This document shows, in pieces, positions 5,549 through 58,657 of a stretch of 64,000 nt of DNA. Origin of the DNA: Escherichia phage 348Ecol098PP; sequence record OR062947.1. One strand, written 5' to 3'. The stretch's first letter is position 1. The number at the start of each line of letters is the position of its first letter. The position numbers and the translations under genes are program-made. The notes below the pieces were generated by a model. It did not search any database, was not told the origin of the DNA, and saw nothing but the letters and a program-made list of their open reading frames with translations.

Positions 5549-5709
5549 AAGAGAAATTTAAAGAGAAATTCTTACTAGAAATCAAGGAAAAAGACTTTGA
5601 GACATGGTATCGAATGGTGAAAGGGTTGACATTGCTTTTTAAAGCATCGTTATTCATGTTAGAACAACCTGGCCCTGATGGACCTTTAGTAGGAAAGCTT
5701 AAAAAGTAG
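5545..5709 (+). CDS. hypothetical small protein
   Basis: 54 aa ORF below the track cutoff; ATGA overlap with upstream stop. Confidence 0.3.
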   Translation: MKEKFKEKFLLEIKEKDFETWYRMVKGLTLLFKASLFMLEQPGPDGPLVGKLKK

Positions 5710-5738
5710 TTTACATTCCCTCCTCTCGTGTTATGATA
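5709..5738 (+). promoter_or_regulatory. T4-type early promoter
   Basis: gtttac at 5709, tatgat -10-like at about 5732. Confidence 0.45.
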
Positions 5739-5764
5739 GGCTTATCTTTAAATGGAGGTCTATC

Positions 5765-6346
5765 ATGACATGTCAATCTGAACTTCAAGAACGTGAATAC
5801 CTAACAAATCTGATTGATAGCAAATTCACCCGCCAAGAACAAAACATTCTCTGGGCTTGCACCGATTCTAAGGAAGACCCGGATTTCCACTATGAATTAG
5901 ACCATCTTGTTCGTAAGCATATGACTTCTACAGTACCAGTAGAACTCTACCGTGGTGTAACTCCAGAAGAAGTAGAACGTCTTTCCCTTCTTTCTGTTGG
6001 ATGTCATTGGTCTCCTGGACGAGTAACATCGTTCACAACTGATTTCAGTACAGCTCGTCAATTCTCTGGGAGATGGGAATATCAGACGTACACTATTCTT
6101 AGTCTCAGGAATGCTCCATTCATTTTTGATTACTACCAAAACATGGTTAACATTGTACTTGCCGGGAAGAACCCTAAGCATGTTATGGAAGAAAAGCGTG
6201 TTGACGTCCTAGATATGATTGAATCTGAACAAGAGTACATGGTCTCAGGTATCTCTAGATTTGAGATTGTGGAAATTGAAGACTTAGAATATGACCCTTT
6301 ATCTCGATTATACAAAATCATTCATTTGAAAATGTTGAATTTTTAG
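5765..6346 (+). CDS. modB: ADP-ribosyltransferase, Mod family (ModB-like)
   Basis: 193 aa; R (LYRG), S-x-T (SFTTDFSTA) and E-x-E (EQEY) motifs in ART order; position between soc and srd as in T4. Confidence 0.6.
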   Translation: MTCQSELQEREYLTNLIDSKFTRQEQNILWACTDSKEDPDFHYELDHLVRKHMTSTVPVELYRGVTPEEVERLSLLSVGCHWSPGRVTSFTTDFSTARQFSGRWEYQTYTILSLRNAPFIFDYYQNMVNIVLAGKNPKHVMEEKRVDVLDMIESEQEYMVSGISRFEIVEIEDLEYDPLSRLYKIIHLKMLNF

Positions 6347-7913: not shown

Positions 7914-8225
7914 ATGGTTTATGTATATGCAATAGTTTATCGAGATATGGAAGGATTTACTGTCCCGGTTCCACTTGATGAGCATCGTCCTGCAGTATTT
8001 TTTAGAAAGGATATTGCAGATAAAGTTTTCGATACTTTGAAAACACAGTATAAAACAGATTTAAAAATGGGAGTTCTAAGAATGGTCGAAACTCCGCGTA
8101 AGTTCTGGTTTAATAAGCTTGAAATGAAACACGTTAAACTAGATGCGGAGACGCAAAGATTGTATCAACGAATCCTGGACACAGGCCGTATTGTTAGTAT
8201 TCCAATTGCAGGGACTTTACGATGA
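7914..8225 (+). CDS. hypothetical protein (dda.1 position)
   Basis: 103 aa; stop overlaps the dda start. Confidence 0.5.
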   Translation: MVYVYAIVYRDMEGFTVPVPLDEHRPAVFFRKDIADKVFDTLKTQYKTDLKMGVLRMVETPRKFWFNKLEMKHVKLDAETQRLYQRILDTGRIVSIPIAGTLR

Positions 8226-9535
8226 CATTTGATGATTTGACTGAAGGCCAGAAAAACGCCTTCAACGTTGTTATGAACGCTATTAAAGAAAAGAAACATC
8301 ACGTAACTATTAATGGGCCTGCTGGTACAGGTAAAACAACCCTTACTAGATTCATCGTTGAAGCCCTTATTTCTTCTGGAGAATCAGGTATTATTTTAGC
8401 AGCCCCTACACACGCCGCTAAAAAGGTTCTAAGCAAACTTGCGGGTCAAGAAGCATCGACTATTCATAGCATTCTTAAAATCAACCCAACTACATACGAA
8501 GAAAACGTATTGTTTGAACAGAAAAAGGTTCCCGACTTAGCCTTGTGCCGTGTACTGTTATTTGACGAAGCGTCAATGTGCGACCGTTCTCTGTTTAAAA
8601 TAATGTTAGCTAGTATCCCTAAATGGTGTACAGTAATTGGAATCGGCGACCGATGCCAGATTCGTCCGGTAGACCCAGGCGAATCAACTGCGTATCTAAG
8701 TCCTTTCTTCACTCACAAAGACTTCGTGCAATGCAATCTTACAGAAGTTAAACGTAGCAATGCACCAATTATTGATGTTGCGACTGATATTCGTAATGGC
8801 AAATGGATTTACGATAAAGTAGTTGATGGACACGGTGTTCACGGATATACAGACCTTAAATCGTATATGATGAACTATTTTAACGTCGTTAAAACTCCTG
8901 AAGACCTTTTCGAAAATCGAATGATGGCATTCACAAATAAGTCGGTGGACAAGTTAAATTCAATTATTCGCCGAAAACTTCTTGAAACAGAAAAACCATT
9001 TATTAAAGACGAAGTCATTGTTCTACAAGAGCCGTTTACTAAGACATATAAGCTAGATGGTAAAAATATGACCGAAATGCTTTTCAATAACGGCCAATTC
9101 GTTCGTATTCGAGATGCTGTAGAAACGTCTACATTCGTTAAAGCACGTGGTGTTTCAGGCGAATATATGATACGATACTGGAATCTTACAGTAGAAACAT
9201 ATGGGGATGATGAAGAATACATCCGCGAAGATATAAAGGTTATTTCTTCTGAAGAAGAGCTTTATAAATTCAATTTGTTTTTGGCTAAGACCGCAGAAAC
9301 ATACAAATTTTGGAATAAAGGTGGTAAAGCTCCATGGAGCGAATTCTGGGATGCTAAACGTATGTTCACTAAGGTGAAGGCGCTACCAGTATCAACCTTC
9401 CATAAGGCCCAGGGTATGTCTGTTGACACTGCCTTTGTTTATACACCGTGTATCCATTATGCCGATTCAGAATTAGCTAAACAGTTATTGTATGTCGGCA
9501 CAACTCGCGGTCGGTTTGACGTCCATTTTATTTGA
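8222..9535 (+). CDS. dda: Dda DNA helicase (SF1B)
   Basis: 437 aa; MTFDDLTEGQKNAFN...INGPAGTGKTT (Walker A) matches remembered T4 Dda. Confidence 0.92.
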   Translation: MTFDDLTEGQKNAFNVVMNAIKEKKHHVTINGPAGTGKTTLTRFIVEALISSGESGIILAAPTHAAKKVLSKLAGQEASTIHSILKINPTTYEENVLFEQKKVPDLALCRVLLFDEASMCDRSLFKIMLASIPKWCTVIGIGDRCQIRPVDPGESTAYLSPFFTHKDFVQCNLTEVKRSNAPIIDVATDIRNGKWIYDKVVDGHGVHGYTDLKSYMMNYFNVVKTPEDLFENRMMAFTNKSVDKLNSIIRRKLLETEKPFIKDEVIVLQEPFTKTYKLDGKNMTEMLFNNGQFVRIRDAVETSTFVKARGVSGEYMIRYWNLTVETYGDDEEYIREDIKVISSEEELYKFNLFLAKTAETYKFWNKGGKAPWSEFWDAKRMFTKVKALPVSTFHKAQGMSVDTAFVYTPCIHYADSELAKQLLYVGTTRGRFDVHFI

Positions 9536-9544
9536 GAGAAAATT

Positions 9545-10222
9545 ATGAGCACTGATGTTATTATAGATTTTGAAACATTCGGCAATACATCAAAAGCGGC
9601 TGTTATTGACCTTGCGGTTATTGCATATAATTCCGACCCTGAAGTTGTTGAATCATTTGAAGAACTTGTTCAACGAGGTAAGCGAATTAAATTTAATTTA
9701 GCTTCTCAGAAAGGGAAGCGAGTTTTCGCTAAATCCACTATGAAATGGTGGAAAGAACAATCGGCTGACGCACGTAAAAACTTGACTCCGTCTGAAGACG
9801 ATGTCACTACGCTTGAAGGCATTAAAATCTTTTTAGACTATTGCCGAGCTAATAAAGTTGACCAATGGAAATCACAGATGTGGTGCCGTGGTATGAGCTT
9901 TGACTTCCCGATCTTAGTCGATTTGATTCGTGACCTTTATCGTGATGAAGGTGTTCTTGAACCAGATATTGATACTGATAAATTAGAACCGGTTAAATTC
10001 TGGGCTCAACGAGATATTCGTACTGCAATCGAAGCTTACTCGTTGACACGAGGATTAAGTATGTGTCCATTACCGATGGGTACGCTAAAAGGATTCGTTG
10101 CCCATGATAGTATTCATGATTGTGCTAAAGATATTTTGATGTTAAAATATGCTCAGCGTTATGCGCTTGGCCTTGAAGATGTCCCTGAGAATCCTGACCC
10201 GTTAAGTGTAAAACAGCGATAA
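9545..10222 (+). CDS. dexA: exonuclease A (DexA)
   Basis: 225 aa; IIDFETFG DEDD-type exonuclease start; adjacent to dda as in T4. Confidence 0.8.
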   Translation: MSTDVIIDFETFGNTSKAAVIDLAVIAYNSDPEVVESFEELVQRGKRIKFNLASQKGKRVFAKSTMKWWKEQSADARKNLTPSEDDVTTLEGIKIFLDYCRANKVDQWKSQMWCRGMSFDFPILVDLIRDLYRDEGVLEPDIDTDKLEPVKFWAQRDIRTAIEAYSLTRGLSMCPLPMGTLKGFVAHDSIHDCAKDILMLKYAQRYALGLEDVPENPDPLSVKQR

Positions 10223-10227
10223 AACCA

Positions 10228-10258
10228 GTTTACAACCAAGGATGGTTGGAGTATAATC
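10228..10258 (+). promoter_or_regulatory. early promoter cassette (family A)
   Basis: gtttacaaccaaggatggttggagtataat; near-identical copies at 10786 and 59673. Confidence 0.55.
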
Positions 10259-10288
10259 TTTCTATCTTAACCAAACAGGAAAAACATT

Positions 10289-10783
10289 ATGAATATCAAT
10301 ACTATGGCTACTTACATCCTGAAAGACGAAAAACAAATCAACTGGTACGGTGCTTCAGTGCGAGCTTATGAAAAGTTTTGTGAAATTTTAGGTGCCACTC
10401 AAGGTAATAGTTTCACTATTGTTAACTTCATCAAACAAGTTGAAGGCCCTTGGTTATTCTTAGAAATTAAAAATTCATACGGTACAATTTCTACTACTGC
10501 CATTCCAAGCACCGACTTTGAACTGTTGATTGAAGAAGCACCTGTTAAAGATGGTCTCCACTTTGATATGGATATCGTTTGTATGTACGGTACTCTGATT
10601 AAGCCTATTGAGCCTACTGATTTGTTGTGTAAATATGTTTCAATTCGACGCCCATTCGATGGTCCGGTAAATGGATGGGTAACTGACCAGTGGATTGAAG
10701 ATGGGGTTGAACTTCTGAACGTTGTTCATGCCGGTGATTTTAGTGTGGTTCCACGTAGTGCAGTAGTTAATATTCTAAATTAA
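10289..10783 (+). CDS. hypothetical protein, paralog 1 (shares C-terminal domain with next two ORFs; motB region)
   Basis: 164 aa; C-terminus GWVTDQWIEDGVELLNVVHAGDFSVVP. Confidence 0.55.
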   Translation: MNINTMATYILKDEKQINWYGASVRAYEKFCEILGATQGNSFTIVNFIKQVEGPWLFLEIKNSYGTISTTAIPSTDFELLIEEAPVKDGLHFDMDIVCMYGTLIKPIEPTDLLCKYVSIRRPFDGPVNGWVTDQWIEDGVELLNVVHAGDFSVVPRSAVVNILN

Positions 10784-10784
10784 T

Positions 10785-10816
10785 GTTGTACATCCAAGGA
10801 TGGATGGAGTATAATG
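10785..10816 (+). promoter_or_regulatory. early promoter cassette (family A)
   Basis: gttgtacatccaaggatggatggagtataat. Confidence 0.5.
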
Positions 10817-10845
10817 AATTCAACTTAAACAAAGAGAGAAAAAAT

Positions 10846-11376
10846 ATGATTACTATTGGTGAAATCCTTCGTGTATCTCCTGCTTCTCGTTCTAAAGCTG
10901 CAGGTCGTCTGGTTGAAGTAGCAGGGCTTCGTACTAACGGCATGGGACGTGTTAAAGAAGTTAAAGTTCGAATCATCCCCAGTTTTGGCGGACAAGATGC
11001 CCAGTATGCTTACGTAAGTCCTAAATTCCTGGAAAAACATATACGAGTCCAATTTGCTTCAAGCGAAGAAGTTGCACCTGCACACTTTGCTTCTGTTGAA
11101 GAAGTTGAATCACGTGATGGATACGTATGTGAATCCACTGAGCCTAATGTACAGTTCAAATGGGCCCTTTGCAAAGGCGTTGAATTTATAACCGATAAAG
11201 AATTTGATTACATCGACGAATACGGTTATCCAAGCAAAACTGATACTATGTGCGGCTTCATCAGCGACCAATGGGTTGAAGATGGTAAAAAGCTATACAA
11301 TATTGTATTCTTAGGTGACTTCCGAGTTGTTGAAGAATCTGAAATCACTCGCTATGTGTCTCCACGTAAAGCTTAA
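10846..11376 (+). CDS. hypothetical protein, paralog 2
   Basis: ATG at 10846 downstream of the promoter (the track start 10783 lies inside the promoter); C-terminus GFISDQWVEDGKKLYNIVFLGDFRVV. Confidence 0.55.
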   Translation: MITIGEILRVSPASRSKAAGRLVEVAGLRTNGMGRVKEVKVRIIPSFGGQDAQYAYVSPKFLEKHIRVQFASSEEVAPAHFASVEEVESRDGYVCESTEPNVQFKWALCKGVEFITDKEFDYIDEYGYPSKTDTMCGFISDQWVEDGKKLYNIVFLGDFRVVEESEITRYVSPRKA

Positions 11377-11385
11377 GGAATTATT

Positions 11386-11805
11386 ATGAATATTGCAAAT
11401 CTCTCTATTGGTGATTATGTACACGTATCGGATGCTTCTCGCTCTAAAGTTGCTGGTAAGTTGGTCGAAGTTCTTTCTGTGAGTGATCCGGTTTTTGGAC
11501 GTAACGAAGTTAAAGTTAGTGACGCCGATGGTAACATTGGTTACGTTAAAAGCCAGTTCATCGAGCCAGAAGAACGCGCGTTCAAATGGAAACTGGGCAG
11601 ATCAGTTTTAGTTGTAAAAGACTACGAGTTCACCATTGCCGCTGCGACAGATGGAACACCGTGGACAACGAATCAAGTTGCTGGTTTTATTTCGGACCAA
11701 TGGGTAGAAGATGGTGTTAAGCTTTATAACATCGTTTTCGCTGGACAGTTCATGGTAGTTCCTGAGTTCCAAATCAAAAAATATTGTCCAGCATCTTTTG
11801 CATAA
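11386..11805 (+). CDS. hypothetical protein, paralog 3
   Basis: 139 aa; N-terminus resembles paralog 2 (SxASRSKxAGxLVEV); C-terminus GFISDQWVEDGVKLYNIVFAGQFMVVP. Confidence 0.55.
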   Translation: MNIANLSIGDYVHVSDASRSKVAGKLVEVLSVSDPVFGRNEVKVSDADGNIGYVKSQFIEPEERAFKWKLGRSVLVVKDYEFTIAAATDGTPWTTNQVAGFISDQWVEDGVKLYNIVFAGQFMVVPEFQIKKYCPASFA

Positions 11806-11809
11806 AGTT

Positions 11810-11860
11810 GTTTACTTCTCCTCTGGATTTGGTATTATATCCATATCAACCAGAGGAGAA
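11810..11860 (+). promoter_or_regulatory. early promoter with 10-bp inverted repeat spanning -10 to SD
   Basis: gtttac at 11810; tctcctctgg (11817-11826) is the reverse complement of ccagaggaga (11850-11859); tattat -10 between them. Confidence 0.5.
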
Positions 11861-11864
11861 TAAT

Positions 11865-12389
11865 ATGTTAGTTTACCGCGTAGAACGTAGTTTTTGTACT
11901 CAACGTGAATCATTACCAGGAATTGCTATCAAAGACGGTAAAGCCGTCAGAATTTGGGAAACCTCTTGGAATAAAGAACCTCGTTCGCCATACGGTTGGT
12001 CGGGCACCGACAACTCTGAAGAAACATGGGAGTTCCTTGATAAGCATGGAATACTCTCAGGTAACTTCTACCATCATGGCGACAACTATAATGTCCCTAA
12101 TCGTCCTACAGTAAATGAAGACAAACTCCTTGAACAAAATATCTTAAGATACTATAGAATTGATCACTCATTTGAATTGAGTGAAGATTGGGCCCAAGGG
12201 TTCTATTTTGGATTTGAAAGTGTTGACGCGGTTTATGCATGGTTTGATGACCAGGTGGATGTTGAACTCTTGAAAGCTAAAGGATACTACATCGCGGTCT
12301 ATGAAGCGCCTGATTTCATCCTCGGAAGTTGTCAATTAATGTTCAGACGTTCATTGGCAGAACAAGTTGATTTTATTTTGCTAAAATGA
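11865..12389 (+). CDS. hypothetical protein
   Basis: ATG at 11865 after cagaggag SD; 174 aa. Confidence 0.5.
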   Translation: MLVYRVERSFCTQRESLPGIAIKDGKAVRIWETSWNKEPRSPYGWSGTDNSEETWEFLDKHGILSGNFYHHGDNYNVPNRPTVNEDKLLEQNILRYYRIDHSFELSEDWAQGFYFGFESVDAVYAWFDDQVDVELLKAKGYYIAVYEAPDFILGSCQLMFRRSLAEQVDFILLK

Positions 12390-12423
12390 TGTACAACAAC
12401 TATGGTCTATGATACTATAGACC
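12388..12423 (+). promoter_or_regulatory. early promoter cassette (family C, ...tatagacctatcaa)
   Basis: atgtac box, tactat -10, inverted repeat ggtcta/tagacc flanking the -10. Confidence 0.45.
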
Positions 12424-12446
12424 TATCAAAACAAGAGGAGAATATT

Positions 12447-12674
12447 ATGAAACGTCAAATCATTAAAAACGTAACTACTGATTCAAACATCGATGAGTTT
12501 GAAGATGTTCTGTTTAATCCTGATTTAGTTGTTGTACAGAAAAACTGGACTGAATTTTTATGCTACACTGAAGTGGTTTACGTTTACGAAAAACTAGGCG
12601 ATGAAATGCCTATCTATGGTATCTTCCGTGAAATCACTGAAAATGGTACAACTTATTGGAAGGAAACTTACTAA
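12447..12674 (+). CDS. hypothetical protein
   Basis: ATG at 12447 after aagaggag SD; 75 aa. Confidence 0.45.
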
Positions 12675-15617: not shown

Positions 15618-16718
15618 ATGAAAGTTATGTTTATCCCATCTCGTGCAGTCCCATTTAACCCAGAACGTGTACAAGGTGGTCTTGAAGCAGTACATTTAAA
15701 TGTGTTGAAATATCTTGTGTCCATCGGTGCTGATATTGATTATATCGGCTTTGATAATGACACATTTGGTGATTGGAAGGTTAATCATCATCCTGTTGGT
15801 CATCTGACTAAATTCAGTCTAGGTATGAGTTATACTATGGCTCGTAAGATTGTTGAACTGGCCGGCATCCATGAATACGATTTTGTTGTTACTATGGAAC
15901 CGACTAAACTAACCGTTCAGGCAATTAAAGACGCAGGTCTCTCTAAAGTTCATAAGAATTTTATGGCAACACCATTTGAACCTGTATCTCGTGGCATTGT
16001 TCAAATTTGGGACCAGACTATTCAAATTCATAAGAATGGCGGTAAGAGTTATGCTCCTACTAAAGCCTTCCGTGAATTTGAACGCAAATATTGTTATATG
16101 ACTTCAGGTCTGACTGACAAAATCGATTATGATTATTGGCGAGCAAATCCGTTGTTTGAAGCCGAAGATTATCCGGTTATTTGTTTGAATGAGAAACCTG
16201 AAGTTCTTCCGGCGACGGATCTGATTATTAGTGCACAACGTTATGACACTAAAATGCGTCGTACTGATGTTGCTCTTGAAGCGATTAAAGCACTAGGCGA
16301 AAATGGTGCAGGATACTGTCCAAGCAAATGGGCGCCACCAGCTAAATATCCTGTTATTATCGATGCTCCACACAGTGAAATCATGGAACGTCTTAAAACA
16401 GCTAAAGCACTTATTAATACGTGTCCTGACACAGGTACGGTAGAGAATAGTTCTATTGAAGCCATCTCTAAAGGTGTCCCTGTAATCCAGTTAGTTTTTA
16501 AGGATTATCCTCATGCGACATTCGAATACGACCCAGATACTGTGCGTGTAGAAATTGATTCCTCTACTCCTAAGAAAGAAGTAGTTGCGCTTTACACAAA
16601 AGCTGTATTAGAATTCACTGACACATACGAAGCTCGAGTTAAACGTGCTGAAGCAGTATGGAAGAAGTATAACCGAGATGCAGTTGTTGCGATGTGGGAT
16701 AAAATCTTCACAGCGTAA
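15618..16718 (+). CDS. putative GT-B fold glycosyltransferase (candidate DNA hydroxymethylcytosine sugar transferase)
   Basis: 366 aa; C-terminal ENSSIEAISKGVPVI resembles the E...EA(M/I)xxGxPV(I/V) donor-binding motif of GT4-like glycosyltransferases; occupies the gene 60 / mobA slot between 39 and rIIA.1. Confidence 0.45.
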   Translation: MKVMFIPSRAVPFNPERVQGGLEAVHLNVLKYLVSIGADIDYIGFDNDTFGDWKVNHHPVGHLTKFSLGMSYTMARKIVELAGIHEYDFVVTMEPTKLTVQAIKDAGLSKVHKNFMATPFEPVSRGIVQIWDQTIQIHKNGGKSYAPTKAFREFERKYCYMTSGLTDKIDYDYWRANPLFEAEDYPVICLNEKPEVLPATDLIISAQRYDTKMRRTDVALEAIKALGENGAGYCPSKWAPPAKYPVIIDAPHSEIMERLKTAKALINTCPDTGTVENSSIEAISKGVPVIQLVFKDYPHATFEYDPDTVRVEIDSSTPKKEVVALYTKAVLEFTDTYEARVKRAEAVWKKYNRDAVVAMWDKIFTA

Positions 16719-16727
16719 ATCCTGAAT

Positions 16728-16790
16728 AGCCTGAGGCACTATTACACATAAGATGATAGATTATATGGTCTTTAGTAATAGTGCCCTAGG
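16728..16790 (+). promoter_or_regulatory. long inverted repeat enclosing an AT-rich -10-like region upstream of the rIIA.1-like ORF
   Basis: aggcactattac ... gtaatagtgcc arms of about 11 bp separated by about 30 nt containing tagattata. Confidence 0.35.
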
Positions 16791-16810: not shown

Positions 16811-17011
16811 ATGAGAACATATAACGTGGACTTGGAACTTTTTGATAAAGCGGTGCTCCGGGAATTCCGGCTTATCCAAAGATTTTTTGATATCGAATCA
16901 GCAGAGTCCTTTAAAGAACGCTTTAAAGAAATTCGATATAAAATACAAACCGATACAGCTACTAAAGAAGAACTTCTCGAAGTAGCAGAAATTTTTAAAC
17001 GTAACTTGTGA
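16811..17011 (+). CDS. rIIA.1-like small protein
   Basis: 66 aa; ATG at 16811 with gaagag SD; directly upstream of rIIA. Confidence 0.45.
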   Translation: MRTYNVDLELFDKAVLREFRLIQRFFDIESAESFKERFKEIRYKIQTDTATKEELLEVAEIFKRNL

Positions 17012-22665: not shown

Positions 22666-23991
22666 ATGCAATTGAATTCTCGTAATCTAAAAAGTATTAT
22701 TGATAACGAAGCCTTAGCATATGCGATGTACACCGTTGAAAACCGTGCAATCCCAAACATGATTGATGGATTTAAGCCGGTTCAACGTTTTGTGGTTCAT
22801 CGTGCGTTAGATTTGGCTCGTGGTAATAAAGAAAAATTTCATAAACTTGCGTCAATTGCAGGAGGTGTTGCAGATTTAGGTTATCATCATGGCGAATCTT
22901 CTGCACAAGATGCAGGTGCATTGATGGCTAACACATGGAACAACAACTATCCGTTGTTAGATGGCCAAGGCAACTTTGGTTCTAGAACAGTCCAAAAAGC
23001 TGCAGCATCTCGTTATATTTTTGCTCGTGTAAGTAAAAATTTCTATAACGTATATAAAGATACTGAATATGCTCCAGCTCATGAAGATAAAGAACACATT
23101 CCACCAAAATTCTATCTTCCTATTATTCCGACAGTTCTTTTGAATGGTGTCTCTGGTATTGCAACCGGTTACGCAACAAATATTCTGCCTCATAGTTTTA
23201 AATCAGTCAAAAAGGCTGTATTACAAGCTCTTCAAGGTAAAAATGTCACTAAGCCAAAAGTTGAATTCCCGGAATTCCGTGGTGAAGTACATGAAGTTGA
23301 TGGGCGTTATGAGATTCACGGAACATATAAGTTCACATCTCGCACTCAAATGCAGATAACTGAAATCCCATATAAATTCGACCGTGAAACGTATGTGAGT
23401 AAGGTTCTTGACCCGTTGGAAGACAAAGGTCTAATCTCATGGGAAGATGATTGTGGTGAACACGGCTTTGGGTTTAAGGTGAAGTTCCGTAAAGAGTACT
23501 CGCTTCCTGATGATGAAGAGCTACGTCATGAAAAAATCATGAAAGATTTTAGTCTCATCGAACGTCGTTCACAAAACATCACAGTGATTAATGAAAAGGG
23601 TAAATTAGCAGTCTATGATAACGTAGTGGACTTAATCAAAGATTTTGTTGAAGTCCGTAAGACTTACGTTCAGAAACGTATTGACAACAAAATCCTTGAA
23701 TCTGAAAAAGCATTTAAACTGGCTTTTGCTAAGGCACACTTCATCAAAAAAGTTATTACAGGTGAAATTGTGATTCAGGGCAAGACCCGTAAAGCTTTGA
23801 CTGAAGAGCTAACACAAATCGAAATGTATAAAGAACATGTCGATAAACTGGTAGGTCTTAACATCTTCCATATCACTTCCGACGAAGCACGTAAACTAGC
23901 AGAAGAAGCTAAAGCTAAGAAAGAAGAAAATGAGTATTGGAAGTCTACTGATGTGGTAACTGAGTATGTTAAAGATTTGGAGGCTCTATGA
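22666..23991 (+). CDS. 52: DNA topoisomerase II medium subunit (GyrA-like) gp52
   Basis: 441 aa; N-terminus ...AYAMYTVENRAIPN.IDGFKPVQR... (GyrA-like catalytic region). Confidence 0.9.
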   Translation: MQLNSRNLKSIIDNEALAYAMYTVENRAIPNMIDGFKPVQRFVVHRALDLARGNKEKFHKLASIAGGVADLGYHHGESSAQDAGALMANTWNNNYPLLDGQGNFGSRTVQKAAASRYIFARVSKNFYNVYKDTEYAPAHEDKEHIPPKFYLPIIPTVLLNGVSGIATGYATNILPHSFKSVKKAVLQALQGKNVTKPKVEFPEFRGEVHEVDGRYEIHGTYKFTSRTQMQITEIPYKFDRETYVSKVLDPLEDKGLISWEDDCGEHGFGFKVKFRKEYSLPDDEELRHEKIMKDFSLIERRSQNITVINEKGKLAVYDNVVDLIKDFVEVRKTYVQKRIDNKILESEKAFKLAFAKAHFIKKVITGEIVIQGKTRKALTEELTQIEMYKEHVDKLVGLNIFHITSDEARKLAEEAKAKKEENEYWKSTDVVTEYVKDLEAL

Positions 23992-40147: not shown

Positions 40148-41050
40148 ATGTTTAAACGTAAATCTACTGCTGACCTCGCTGCTCAAATGGCTAAACTGAA
40201 TGGTAACAAAGGTTTCTCTTCAGAAGATAAAGGCGAATGGAAGCTGAAGCTAGATGCATCCGGTAATGGTCAAGCGGTAATTCGTTTCTTGCCAGCAAAA
40301 ACTGATGATGCACTACCATTTGCAATTCTTGTTAACCACGGTTTCAAGAAAAATGGTAAATGGTATATTGAAAATTGCTCTTCTACACACGGTGATTATG
40401 ACTCTTGTCCTGTATGTCAGTACATTAGTAAAAATGACCTGTACAATACTAACAAAAATGAATATTCTCAACTGAAACGTAAAACTTCTTATTGGGCTAA
40501 TATTCTGGTTGTTAAAGACCCTCAAGCTCCAGATAACGAAGGTAAAGTATTTAAATATCGTTTCGGTAAAAAGATTTGGGACAAAATCAATGCAATGATT
40601 GCTGTTGATACCGAAATGGGTGAAACTCCAGTTGATGTTACTTGTCCGTTTGAAGGTGCCAACTTCGTTCTGAAAGCTAAGCAGGTTTCTGGTTTTAGCA
40701 ACTATGACGAATCTAAATTCTTGGGTCAATCTGAAATTCCTCGTATTAATGACGAAGCATTCCAGAAAGAACTATATGACCAGATGGTAGATCTTACTAC
40801 TTTGACGGCTAAAGACCAGTTCAAATCCTTTGAAAAATTAAATGAATCTTTCGCTAAGGTTCTTGGTACTGCCGCTCTTGGTGGTGCAGCAGCCGCAGCA
40901 GCTTCTGTTGCAGATAAAGTTGCTTCTGACCTTGACGATTTTGATAAAGACATGGAAGCCTTTAGTTCTGCAAAAACTGAAGATGACTTCATGAGCTCTA
41001 CCTCATCCTCTGATGATGGTGACCTCGATGACCTGTTAGCTGGTCTATAA
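40148..41050 (+). CDS. 32: single-stranded DNA-binding protein gp32
   Basis: 300 aa; [16 protein letters not shown]...FLP; acidic C-terminal tail. Confidence 0.92.
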
Positions 41051-41078: not shown

Positions 41079-41105
41079 GAGTATCTGTAAATTGCCGAAA
41101 AAGTT

Positions 41106-41136
41106 GTTTACTTCTTCCCTGGATGTGTTAGTATAG
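41106..41136 (+). promoter_or_regulatory. early promoter cassette (family C)
   Basis: gtttacttcttccctggatgtgttagtatagacctatcaa. Confidence 0.5.
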
Positions 41137-41163
41137 ACCTATCAACAACATGAGGAAATCAAA

Positions 41164-41568
41164 ATGGAAATCGGAAAATCTTATATCATTAACCCTTTAT
41201 TTAAAGATGACTTTGTTCAAGAAGCACCACACAATAACGCTAAGATGTTAAAATTGATTGAACTCCACGGGCCTAGTTTTGTTGTAAACGGAATGGAACC
41301 TGATTATGATAGCGATACGTCAAACGTAGTAAGTGTAACTATGGAAGATGGTACTGTATGTTCTGCCGGTGGTGAAATTGAAACTTATTTTGAGATTTAT
41401 CCTGACGAGTTCAAATACTTTATTGAGTACTTTACTGAGGTAACTTTAGAAAAGCCTCAACCTACTAACGAAGGTATAACTTTAGGTGTAACAAAAATCC
41501 ATTGTATCGTAGATGAAACCAACGTCGACGAAATCATCAAACTTTTGCAAAAAACTTTTAAAAAGTAG
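41164..41568 (+). CDS. hypothetical protein
   Basis: 134 aa; catgaggaa SD. Confidence 0.5.
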   Translation: MEIGKSYIINPLFKDDFVQEAPHNNAKMLKLIELHGPSFVVNGMEPDYDSDTSNVVSVTMEDGTVCSAGGEIETYFEIYPDEFKYFIEYFTEVTLEKPQPTNEGITLGVTKIHCIVDETNVDEIIKLLQKTFKK

Positions 41569-58143: not shown

Positions 58144-58175
58144 GTTTACTCTCCTGTAGGATGTGTTACTATAGA
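58144..58175 (+). promoter_or_regulatory. T4-type early promoter
   Basis: gtttac at 58144, tactat -10 at 58167 (17 nt spacer). Confidence 0.5.
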
Positions 58176-58214
58176 CTTGTACCACCTAATCGATAAAACA
58201 AACCGGAGAACAAA

Positions 58215-58583
58215 ATGAAAATCAATCTGAACTCATACATCAAATGTAAAGACCACGACGGTTATAAAGCTATCGAAATTAAAGAATTCCAGTGGATGTT
58301 ATACAAAGAGCAATTTGAGTTCGTAGGTTGTATGACCCCTGAAGGACCTTCAGATGATTTCTCTTGGAAAATTGTGTTAGCAAACTTTTTCACAGGTGAC
58401 ACATACGAATTAAAAACTATTATTACCGGTAAAATTCGTTCAGAAACATATGTTGACGAAGAAACTGGTTACTCTGAAGATGTTACATGGTATCAAAATG
58501 GACGCATTACAGCAGATAACCTGATCGAAAAAATGAAAGCCAAAGGTGTTTTAAATTTAGACAATTGGATTAAAGTTGCATAA
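58215..58583 (+). CDS. hypothetical protein
   Basis: 122 aa; ccggagaa SD. Confidence 0.5.
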   Translation: MKINLNSYIKCKDHDGYKAIEIKEFQWMLYKEQFEFVGCMTPEGPSDDFSWKIVLANFFTGDTYELKTIITGKIRSETYVDEETGYSEDVTWYQNGRITADNLIEKMKAKGVLNLDNWIKVA

Positions 58584-58587
58584 AACA

Positions 58588-58627
58588 GTTTACTTTGGTA
58601 CAGGTTATGTTATTATAGACCTGTACC
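58588..58627 (+). promoter_or_regulatory. early promoter with 8-bp inverted repeat flanking -10
   Basis: gtttac at 58588; ggtacagg ... cctgtacc flanking tattat. Confidence 0.5.
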
Positions 58628-58657
58628 AACAAACAACTTAAACATCTGGAGAATAAA

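Follow-up and report, generated by a model that had tools for sequence, protein, structure and literature searches.

An early-promoter hairpin upstream of motB.2 in a Mosigvirus genome is predicted to mask the Shine-Dalgarno sequence in read-through RNA

Results

The motB.2 promoter, hairpin and ribosome-binding site

The stretch analysed here comprises 64,000 nucleotides of Escherichia phage 348Ecol098PP (OR062947.1; hereafter the window), and the element under study is the intergenic cassette ahead of motB.2, in which an inverted repeat spans an early promoter and the Shine-Dalgarno (SD) sequence of the gene. The window is the early region of a Mosigvirus (an RB69/JS09-like T4-type coliphage), and a 1015-bp query around the site matched 154 phage records at 80-99% identity, nearly all of them Mosigvirus-type phages of Escherichia or Shigella. 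Following the JS09 annotation, the genes on the plus strand run dda, dexA, motB.1, motB, a MotB-like paralogue, motB.2, cef, goF, 39.2 and topoisomerase, and Pfam and PHROG scans place the open reading frames (ORFs) at 10289, 10783 and 11386 in the MotB family. The motB.2 start codon (ATG, 11865) is confirmed by the N-terminus M-x-x-Y-R-V-E conserved among MotB.2 homologues; searches of MotB.2 for Pfam and PDB sequence matches returned none.

The cassette contains a T4-type early promoter made up of GTTTAC, a 17-nt spacer, an extended -10 element (TGg, with TG at 11830-11831) and TATTAT (Table 1), which the promoter scan lists as TTTACT-16-TATTAT with TG. The T4 records NC_000866 and AF158101 hold no promoter features at motB.2. 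Transcription is predicted to begin at about position 11845, an A located 7 nt past the -10 hexamer within TATCAA, a motif found again behind the -10 in other early promoters of the window. With the hexamer ending at 11838, a start placed anywhere 6-9 nt further on (11844-11847) would lie between the arms of the repeat, and the energetic outcome described below is insensitive to shifts of +/-2 nt. The SD sequence GAGGAG is positioned 6 nt ahead of the ATG.

An earlier note on this DNA had described a 10-bp perfect inverted repeat (11817-11826 and 11850-11859) whose arms flank a TATTAT -10 and whose right arm includes the GAGGAG of the downstream gene. Its coordinates and reverse complementarity are correct, and the hexamer (11833-11838) and the SD sequence (11853-11858) lie where it placed them, although the repeat is in fact 1 bp longer, with 11-bp arms TTCTCCTCTGG and CCAGAGGAGAA separated by 23 nt. 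The bare repeat is only mildly unusual, as the window contains three perfect inverted repeats of at least 11 bp with loops of at most 40 nt, compared to 0.78 +/- 0.89 in dinucleotide shuffles. The fold itself is unusual. An inner 7-bp helix extends the structure to an 18-bp hairpin with a folding energy of -22.5 to -23.5 kcal/mol (z = -4.3 to -5.05), and 0-1 of 200 dinucleotide shuffles were equally stable. The position of the hairpin on the SD sequence, together with the conservation and covariation described below, shows that it is not a product of chance. Rfam covariance models found no family in the 11000-12600 interval, where the one sub-threshold match was a chance match away from the hairpin (26 bits, compared to a gathering score of 94).

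Table 1. Coordinates of the motB.2 cassette and of the features upstream and downstream of it.
Feature	Position	Strand	Remarks
Upstream early-type promoter, GTTTAC-N18-TATAAT	10228-10257	+	11/12 matches to the sigma-70 consensus; likely source of read-through RNA
Second upstream promoter-like site, TGTACA-17-TATAAT	10787-10815	+	Precedes the MotB gene; another likely source of read-through RNA
Upstream MotB-like gene	11386-11805	+	Precedes the cassette
TAA stop of the upstream MotB-like gene	11803-11805	+	Left edge of the intergenic cassette
-35 element GTTTAC	11810-11815	+	Sigma-70 register is TTTACT, 11811-11816
Left arm TTCTCCTCTGG	11816-11826	+	Most of the promoter spacer; anti-SD sequence; predicted to be transcribed solely in read-through RNA
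Inner helix, 5' strand TTGGTAT	11829-11835	+	Overlaps the TG of the extended -10 and the first bases of the -10 hexamer
-10 hexamer TATTAT	11833-11838	+	Top of the hairpin: end of the inner helix and first loop bases
Inner helix, 3' strand ATATCAA	11843-11849	+	Holds the predicted transcription start (A, 11845)
Right arm CCAGAGGAGAA	11850-11860	+	Contains the SD sequence GAGGAG, 11853-11858
motB.2 homologue (174 aa; phrog_1106, function unknown)	11865-12389	+	Gene downstream of the hairpin

Two further repeats in the window were noted alongside this one. Perfect 11-bp arms at 16735-16745 and 16775-16785 (GGCACTATTAC and GTAATAGTGCC, 29-nt loop) lie between the ORF at 15618-16718 and a small ORF at 16811-17011, with neither a GTTTAC-type promoter nor an obvious U-tract. 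An AT-rich perfect 10-bp repeat (23641-23650 and 23685-23694) sits inside the coding sequence at 22666-23991 and is probably a chance occurrence, about 3.4 such repeats being expected per window.

Two kinds of motB.2 transcript

Because the left arm forms part of the -35/-10 spacer, it lies upstream of the predicted start and would be missing from RNA made by the cassette's own promoter. The coupling of promoter architecture to translation initiation put forward in the earlier note remains the best-supported reading, and the anatomy is as described there, with arms that flank the -10 and the SD sequence in the right arm. The logic needs to be recast, however: with a start near 11845, the hairpin is not one that forms within the gene's own mRNA. 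That note had counted a start downstream of the left arm, combined with a lack of effect of arm mutations, against its proposal; the predicted start supplies half of this and does not amount to a refutation, because RNA that reads through from upstream transcribes the left arm.

Two upstream promoter-like sites are likely sources of such RNA (Table 1). A terminator scan detected no terminator-like sites between the promoters at 10228 or 10787 and the start codon at 11865, and a pattern search of positions 8000-11865 detected no MotA-box middle promoters. The ORF listed from 10783 probably starts at ATG 10846, downstream of the 10787-10815 site. T4 has mapped middle-promoter starts at 10058 and 11138, which lie upstream of dexA and motB.2 and share their orientation (PMC2988021), and read-through into T4 motB.2 is therefore realistic. 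Translational coupling, in which a ribosome terminating on the upstream gene would melt the stem, was also considered and is unlikely; 10 nt separate the stop codon from the stem in the window (8-14 nt in other genera), so that, judging from the size of the ribosome footprint, a terminating ribosome should melt at most 1-2 bp.

The two transcripts differ sharply in the predicted cost of opening the ribosome site, computed as the energy needed to unpair positions -15 to +3 relative to the start codon, with read-through RNA folded in a 180-nt context. For motB.2 in the window the cost is 18.1 kcal/mol in read-through RNA, as compared to 1.5-1.6 kcal/mol in RNA begun 6-9 nt after the -10 (proximal RNA). 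In the other genera with the hairpin, read-through RNA costs 13.5-20.3 kcal/mol and proximal RNA 1.5-4.2 kcal/mol in most; the gap is narrower in genome L018 (18.6 versus 6.3-8.7 kcal/mol), and two hairpin-less relatives show no gap. Among the 75 SD-bearing gene starts in the window, motB.2 ranks first for opening cost (median 5.6, sd 3.7 kcal/mol), and its SD sequence has a predicted pairing probability of about 1.0 in long RNA, the window maximum in an 86-nt context.

Some other starts are also costly. The third of the 75 (17.1 kcal/mol in read-through RNA) belongs to a ModA/ModB-type ADP-ribosylase gene (5765-6346, phrog_832); within 5709-5770, CCCTCCTCT is found in its promoter spacer, and TGTTATGATAGGC of the -10 region can pair with GGTCTATCATGA in the SD-ATG region. 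This gene may have another promoter-gated start. On the minus strand, the starts of putative ORFs at 40992 and 40729 have predicted opening costs of 17.2 and 15.3 kcal/mol.

Conservation and covariation of the hairpin

The layout seen in the window (type A) recurs upstream of motB.2 in at least five genera or lineages: Mosigvirus (the window, JS09, RB69, PhAPEC2 and metagenomic contigs), Tequatrovirus (T4, PhiZZ6, IsaacDaniel and others), Dhakavirus (IME08), Karamvirus (CkP1) and a VR5-like lineage. The -10 reads TAYTAT in all genera, and the -35 GTTTAC is nearly invariant across 15 sequences from 4-5 genera, the exception being one sampled Tequatrovirus, L021, which has ATTTAC. The inner stems differ in sequence and stay complementary (TCTGG/CCAGA, TCATG/CATGA, GTTTGG/CCAAAC and CGGTTAG/CTACTG). 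Kanagawavirus-like phages have a relocated hairpin (type B): the left arm (AUGACCUCCU in PEi20) begins with the final two bases of the -10 and reaches roughly to the predicted start, and the SD sequence again lies in the right arm. Types A and B thus have in common an SD sequence in the 3' arm and a 5' arm upstream of the start predicted from the sequence.

A plain MAFFT alignment left the 3' arms out of register between genera, and we instead aligned all type A units to a covariance model derived from the Mosigvirus-Dhakavirus subset. In this alignment 92.1% of the cells are paired, compared to 40-59% when the partner column is slid, and both sides have changed at 10 of the 18 pairs; neither the observed pairing nor the covariation score was reached by any of 500 shuffles. 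As an alignment of this kind leans toward structure, alignment-free folds were computed for each lineage, and these gave z values of -5.33 (T4), -4.40 (CkP1), -5.42 (IME08), -3.22 (PEi20) and -4.22 (L018); hairpin-less relatives gave -1.0 and +0.75.

These data also bear on whether the repeat acts as DNA, either as an operator with two half-sites for a protein or as a cruciform that modulates the promoter. A perfect 11-bp repeat overlapping a promoter is what such an element might look like, but the half-site centres are 34 bp apart, and it is complementarity, not sequence, that is conserved between genera. Several stem positions contain G-U pairs, which would be A-C mismatches on the other strand and in a symmetric DNA site; they therefore argue for an RNA structure on the sense strand. 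A 23-nt loop is, moreover, unfavourable for cruciform extrusion. We regard action at the DNA level as extremely improbable.

Related promoters and mobility of the cassette

In PeSL (promoter-early stem-loop) cassettes, an AT-rich lead is followed by an early promoter of sigma-70-like type (TTTACW-N17-TAYWAT in T4/PST), a stem-loop, an SD sequence and an ATG; the stem-loop sits between the -35 and -10 elements or overlaps the -10, and the cassettes occur in many copies per genome and are linked to indels and gene shuffling (PMC2839356, PMC4122927). The window contains 23-24 early-type promoter units on the plus strand (GT[TG]TAC-N17/18-TAnnnT), with examples beginning at 358, 12390-12446 (cef), 21029, 21541, 41568, 54661 and 58588. 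In most, a stem-loop takes in the -10, stops close to the predicted start and leaves the SD sequence free; the perfect 11-bp repeat at 58595-58605 and 58619-58629 is one such promoter stem-loop. The motB.2 unit is a PeSL whose stem reaches the SD sequence. Strong anti-SD 5-mers occur in 3 of 24 early-promoter spacers (background 0.46 +/- 0.67). An anti-SD sequence as part of the early-promoter consensus was rejected, given the 3 of 24 spacers with 5-mers and 4-mer cores that are not enriched (3 versus 1.78 expected).

Two further units in the window pair more weakly. One, at 41102-41166 (GTTTACTTCTTCCCTGGATGTGTTAGTAT...GAGGAA), is a paralogous early-promoter cassette that precedes a phrog_622 gene, from a family of goF-region paralogues. 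The motB.2 cassette model gives it 34 bits, and its SD masking is weak (SD unpaired probability 0.43 in long RNA). The spacer of the early promoter at 58144-58217, which serves the phrog_1507 gene at 58215-58583, opens with TCTCC, complementary to a GGAGA SD sequence 45 nt downstream, and the predicted masking is again weak.

The surroundings of the cassette differ between genera. Together with motB.2 it follows dexA in T4, Dhakavirus, Kanagawavirus and Karamvirus, and follows MotB paralogues in Mosigvirus. In the window three tandem MotB-family paralogues (motB.1-like, MotB and MotB-like; 10289-11805) intervene between dexA and motB.2, and the T4 order differs, being dexA, motB.2, motB.1, motB. 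Shigella phage phi25-307 (L040, 1481-1583), a Mosigvirus that lacks motB.2, has a single cassette in the gap between the MotB-like gene and cef. When compared with positions 11780-11880 and 12362-12462 of the window, its sequence is that of the motB.2 cassette as far as GTTTACTTCTCCTCT and that of the cef cassette beginning with TACTATAGACC, a junction that places a crossover in the spacer/-10 zone. In the hybrid, TTCTCCTCT still pairs with the cef SD sequence AGAGGAGAA (-14.1 kcal/mol, z -2.3). Arbiol and Comeau have described PeSL-bounded indels of this kind. The zone in which PeSL crossovers usually fall separates the anti-SD arm from the SD sequence; on the more tentative reading given in the Discussion, recombination could therefore transfer the putative insulation to another gene, as for cef in phi25-307.

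Such mobility raises the possibility that the complementarity has no selected function and was simply inherited within a recombining PeSL family that carries TTCTCCTCT-type spacers and AGAGGAGAA-type SD sequences. The left arm of the Mosigvirus regB cassette, GTTTACTTCTCCTCTAG, is nearly the same as that of motB.2, the covariance model also matches the paralogous cassette at 41102-41166, and in phi25-307 a left half of motB.2 type now pairs with the SD sequence of cef. However, inheritance alone would not predict that the inner stem changes on both sides across genera with complementarity kept, and anti-SD words appear in just three of the window's 24 spacers. We therefore consider this explanation very unlikely.

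Transcription termination

A stable hairpin near the end of a gene could also serve mainly as a terminator or attenuator for upstream RNA, with the SD pairing being incidental, a role that could coexist with masking. One RB49 PeSL stem-loop reduced expression of downstream lacZ about as much as rrnB T1 (Arbiol et al. 2010, PMC2839356), and most early promoters in the window have hairpins that enclose the -10 irrespective of the SD sequence. As an intrinsic terminator the motB.2 hairpin was rejected: it has a 23-nt loop with an inner helix, a terminator scan of both strands found nothing at the hairpin, and no lineage has a U-tract 3' of the stem, where the flank reads AAUAAUAUG in the window and UAAUAAAAUG in T4. 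The relocated hairpin of Kanagawavirus still contains the SD sequence, as expected under masking but not required of a terminator, and complete termination should be costly with cef, goF and 39.2 close downstream. Termination or attenuation as the main role is, on this evidence, fairly unlikely.

The regB cassette and RegB cleavage in T4

Searching with a short query turned up a regB cassette of Gelderlandvirus whose layout is that of motB.2; regB itself is absent from the 64-kb window. In T4 (Tequatrovirus; X04567, 443-501) the regB arms TTTTCCTCTTGACTG and CAGTTAAGAGGAGAA give opening costs of 18.5 kcal/mol in read-through RNA and 3.6 kcal/mol in proximal RNA, and in ATK48 (Mosigvirus; ~330-403) the corresponding values for TTCTCCTCTAGTT and AACTAGAGGAGAA are 17.5 and 4.6 kcal/mol. 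Pairing is weaker in AS6 (Karamvirus; 8.1 and 3.6 kcal/mol), KP179 (Jiaodavirus; 8.9 and 5.3 kcal/mol) and CF-SP2 (Gelderlandvirus; 11.9 and 4.9 kcal/mol). The 1986 T4 record X04567 already annotates an "imp. inverted repeat D", a "pot. -10 region" and an "imp. inverted repeat D'", with the ribosome-binding site of ORF 61.9 (regB) within D'. It labels the repeat 'pot. transcription terminator', a label that favours the terminator reading discussed above. An early promoter immediately upstream drives T4 regB, whose SD sequence is cut by RegB (PMC3014915); the same review does not mention the regB repeat and draws no link to translation.

Data on RegB provide a view of the leader in infected cells. 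The T4 motB.2 SD sequence (GGAU) is one of only two intergenic GGAU sites that are efficiently cut by RegB in vivo, the enzyme is inhibited by secondary structure, and 16 RegB-resistant GGAG sites of T4 lie in stable structures (PMC1702504). As RegB cuts the motB.2 and regB SD sequences in T4 yet is inhibited by structure, an open form of these leaders exists in infected cells, which is what proximal transcripts would be expected to provide. The rule for RegB/S1 targets is GGAG/U followed by 7 A-rich nt without C (PMC1702504), and in the window GGAG (11855-11858) followed by AAUAAUA (11859-11865) fits it.

The same data make it conceivable that the hairpin controls RNA stability or processing (as a shield against RegB, a block to 3'-5' exonucleases or an RNase III site) and not motB.2 translation. 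In support of this, the SD sequence is a canonical RegB-type site, structure protects such sites in T4, and the stem is 18 bp long. The stem is, however, short and interrupted compared to a typical RNase III substrate. An SD sequence hidden from RegB is also hidden from ribosomes, which makes a RegB shield hard to separate from the second layer of the mechanism proposed below. We judge a role confined to stability or processing to be unlikely.

Discussion

We favour, as moderately probable, a model in which the cassette upstream of motB.2 is of PeSL type and its stem pairs the promoter spacer with the motB.2 SD sequence, so that the choice of promoter decides whether the RNA can be translated. 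The embedded early promoter would produce RNA with a 20-nt unstructured leader and a free SD sequence, allowing motB.2 to be translated in the first minutes of infection and yielding a burst of MotB.2. RNA from upstream early or middle promoters would include the spacer, and once the SD sequence had been transcribed the 18-bp hairpin would form, burying the ribosome-binding site and leaving the motB.2 cistron untranslated. Translation of motB.2 would thus be licensed by its own promoter only. By analogy with T4, a second layer is likely, in which the exposed SD sequence serves as a site for the RegB endonuclease and proximal transcripts are soon inactivated, while in read-through RNA the hairpin would hide GGAG and keep the long transcript intact for cef, goF and topoisomerase.

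Several observations weigh against this model. The covariation derives from about 4-5 independent lineages in an alignment that was fitted to the model, and the outer stem (CTCC/GGAG) is constrained by the SD sequence itself, so that only the inner pairs are informative. The JS09 stem tolerates a C-A mismatch, and the promoter is kept without any hairpin in L031 and Serratia SP1, where masking is therefore dispensable. The prevalence of -10-enclosing hairpins among early promoters of the window counts here as well, as promoter hairpins may be selected for another reason, with SD pairing arising as a by-product of a short leader. Finally, Durand et al. (PMC1702504) note that some structured sites can be cut by RegB in vivo while the RNA is nascent.

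A broader and more tentative possibility, to which we give less than even weight, is that T4-type phages possess a conserved class of self-licensing immediate-early promoters that act as a two-layer timer, combining an anti-SD spacer with an SD sequence that is a RegB site. Members would be motB.2, regB and possibly the ModA/B-type gene. Translation would occur solely from first-minute transcripts of the gene's own promoter, which RegB would then destroy; later read-through RNA would be untranslatable at the cistron and protected from RegB, and the genes downstream would stay expressed.

If the model is correct, one gene is given a strictly immediate-early translation window despite read-through over nearly every packed early gene, and PeSL stem-loops gain a further function, one not considered by those who described them. 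At least two T4-family genes would show a link between promoter architecture, SD masking and RegB targeting, and motB.2 would be flagged as encoding a protein whose dosage or timing is under tight phage control. The cassette would also offer the design of synthetic operons a compact natural part (~55 bp) for shielding a gene from transcription that arrives from upstream.

Comparison with known systems

The class of mechanism and the class of cassette are both established already. In T4 genes e, soc, 49 and I-TevI (and in mobE of Aeh1), a helix sequesters the SD/AUG region and its 5' strand is present only in RNA started upstream, whereas initiation inside the hairpin yields an open leader (PMC3014915). 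The motB.2 cassette resembles these gates in that its SD sequence is predicted to lie in a stable local helix in upstream-initiated RNA. It differs in that the T4 gates have late promoters (TATAAATA) and delay translation to late infection, whereas the motB.2 promoter is an early sigma-70 promoter without TATAAATA whose spacer is itself the anti-SD sequence; the predicted timing is the opposite (immediate-early), with the gene insulated from read-through.

The likeness to PeSLs is close. The motB.2 cassette is intergenic, filling the 59-nt gap between the stop codon at 11803-11805 and the ATG at 11865, and it combines a predicted sigma-70-like early promoter (GTTTAC(T)-N16/17-TATTAT with TGn) with a stable 18-bp stem-loop at the promoter (-22.5 kcal/mol, z -5.05) and with an SD sequence and ATG at the 3' end. 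The 23-24 related units in the window, the paralogue at 41102-41166, the phi25-307 chimera and the different placement of the motB.2 cassette in T4 and Mosigvirus are likewise in keeping with this family. The difference is one of interpretation and of reach, as the authors who described PeSLs read the stem-loop as a terminator or attenuator and a recombination site, and most PeSL stems in the window leave the SD sequence free. The words 'ribosome' and 'translation' are absent from the text of Arbiol 2010 (PMC2839356), which does not discuss SD pairing, and the PeSL and T4 literature examined holds no statement that early-promoter stem-loops mask the SD sequence, although an older T4 description is possible. 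The accessible portions of Arbiol 2010 and Comeau 2014 describe PeSLs in RB49/phi1, PST/T4 and nt-1/KVP40 (PMC2839356, PMC4122927) and contain no description of them in RB69-type phages, where the layout has apparently not yet been described.

The D/D' repeat of T4 regB (X04567) has the identical layout, in which arm D, a potential -10 and an arm D' with the ribosome-binding site succeed one another, and the same energetic asymmetry is found; it concerns another gene and was annotated merely as a potential terminator of the upstream ORF. A Rho-independent terminator is similar in that a stable hairpin follows a gene in intergenic DNA and dissimilar in its U-tract, which is missing here, and in the 23-nt loop and lack of a scan match of the motB.2 element. 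In bacteria, the CT-rich insulators of sigma-54 promoters (Levy et al. 2017, 10.1101/086108) rely on a similar principle, as an anti-SD sequence encoded in the promoter silences translation of read-through RNA and leaves the promoter's own transcripts unaffected. Those insulators are motifs of 3-5 nt in bacterial sigma-54 promoters, whereas the motB.2 cassette has a covarying helix of 11+7 bp at a phage promoter of sigma-70 type, with its anti-SD core about 30 nt upstream of the SD sequence and not within 25 bp of it.

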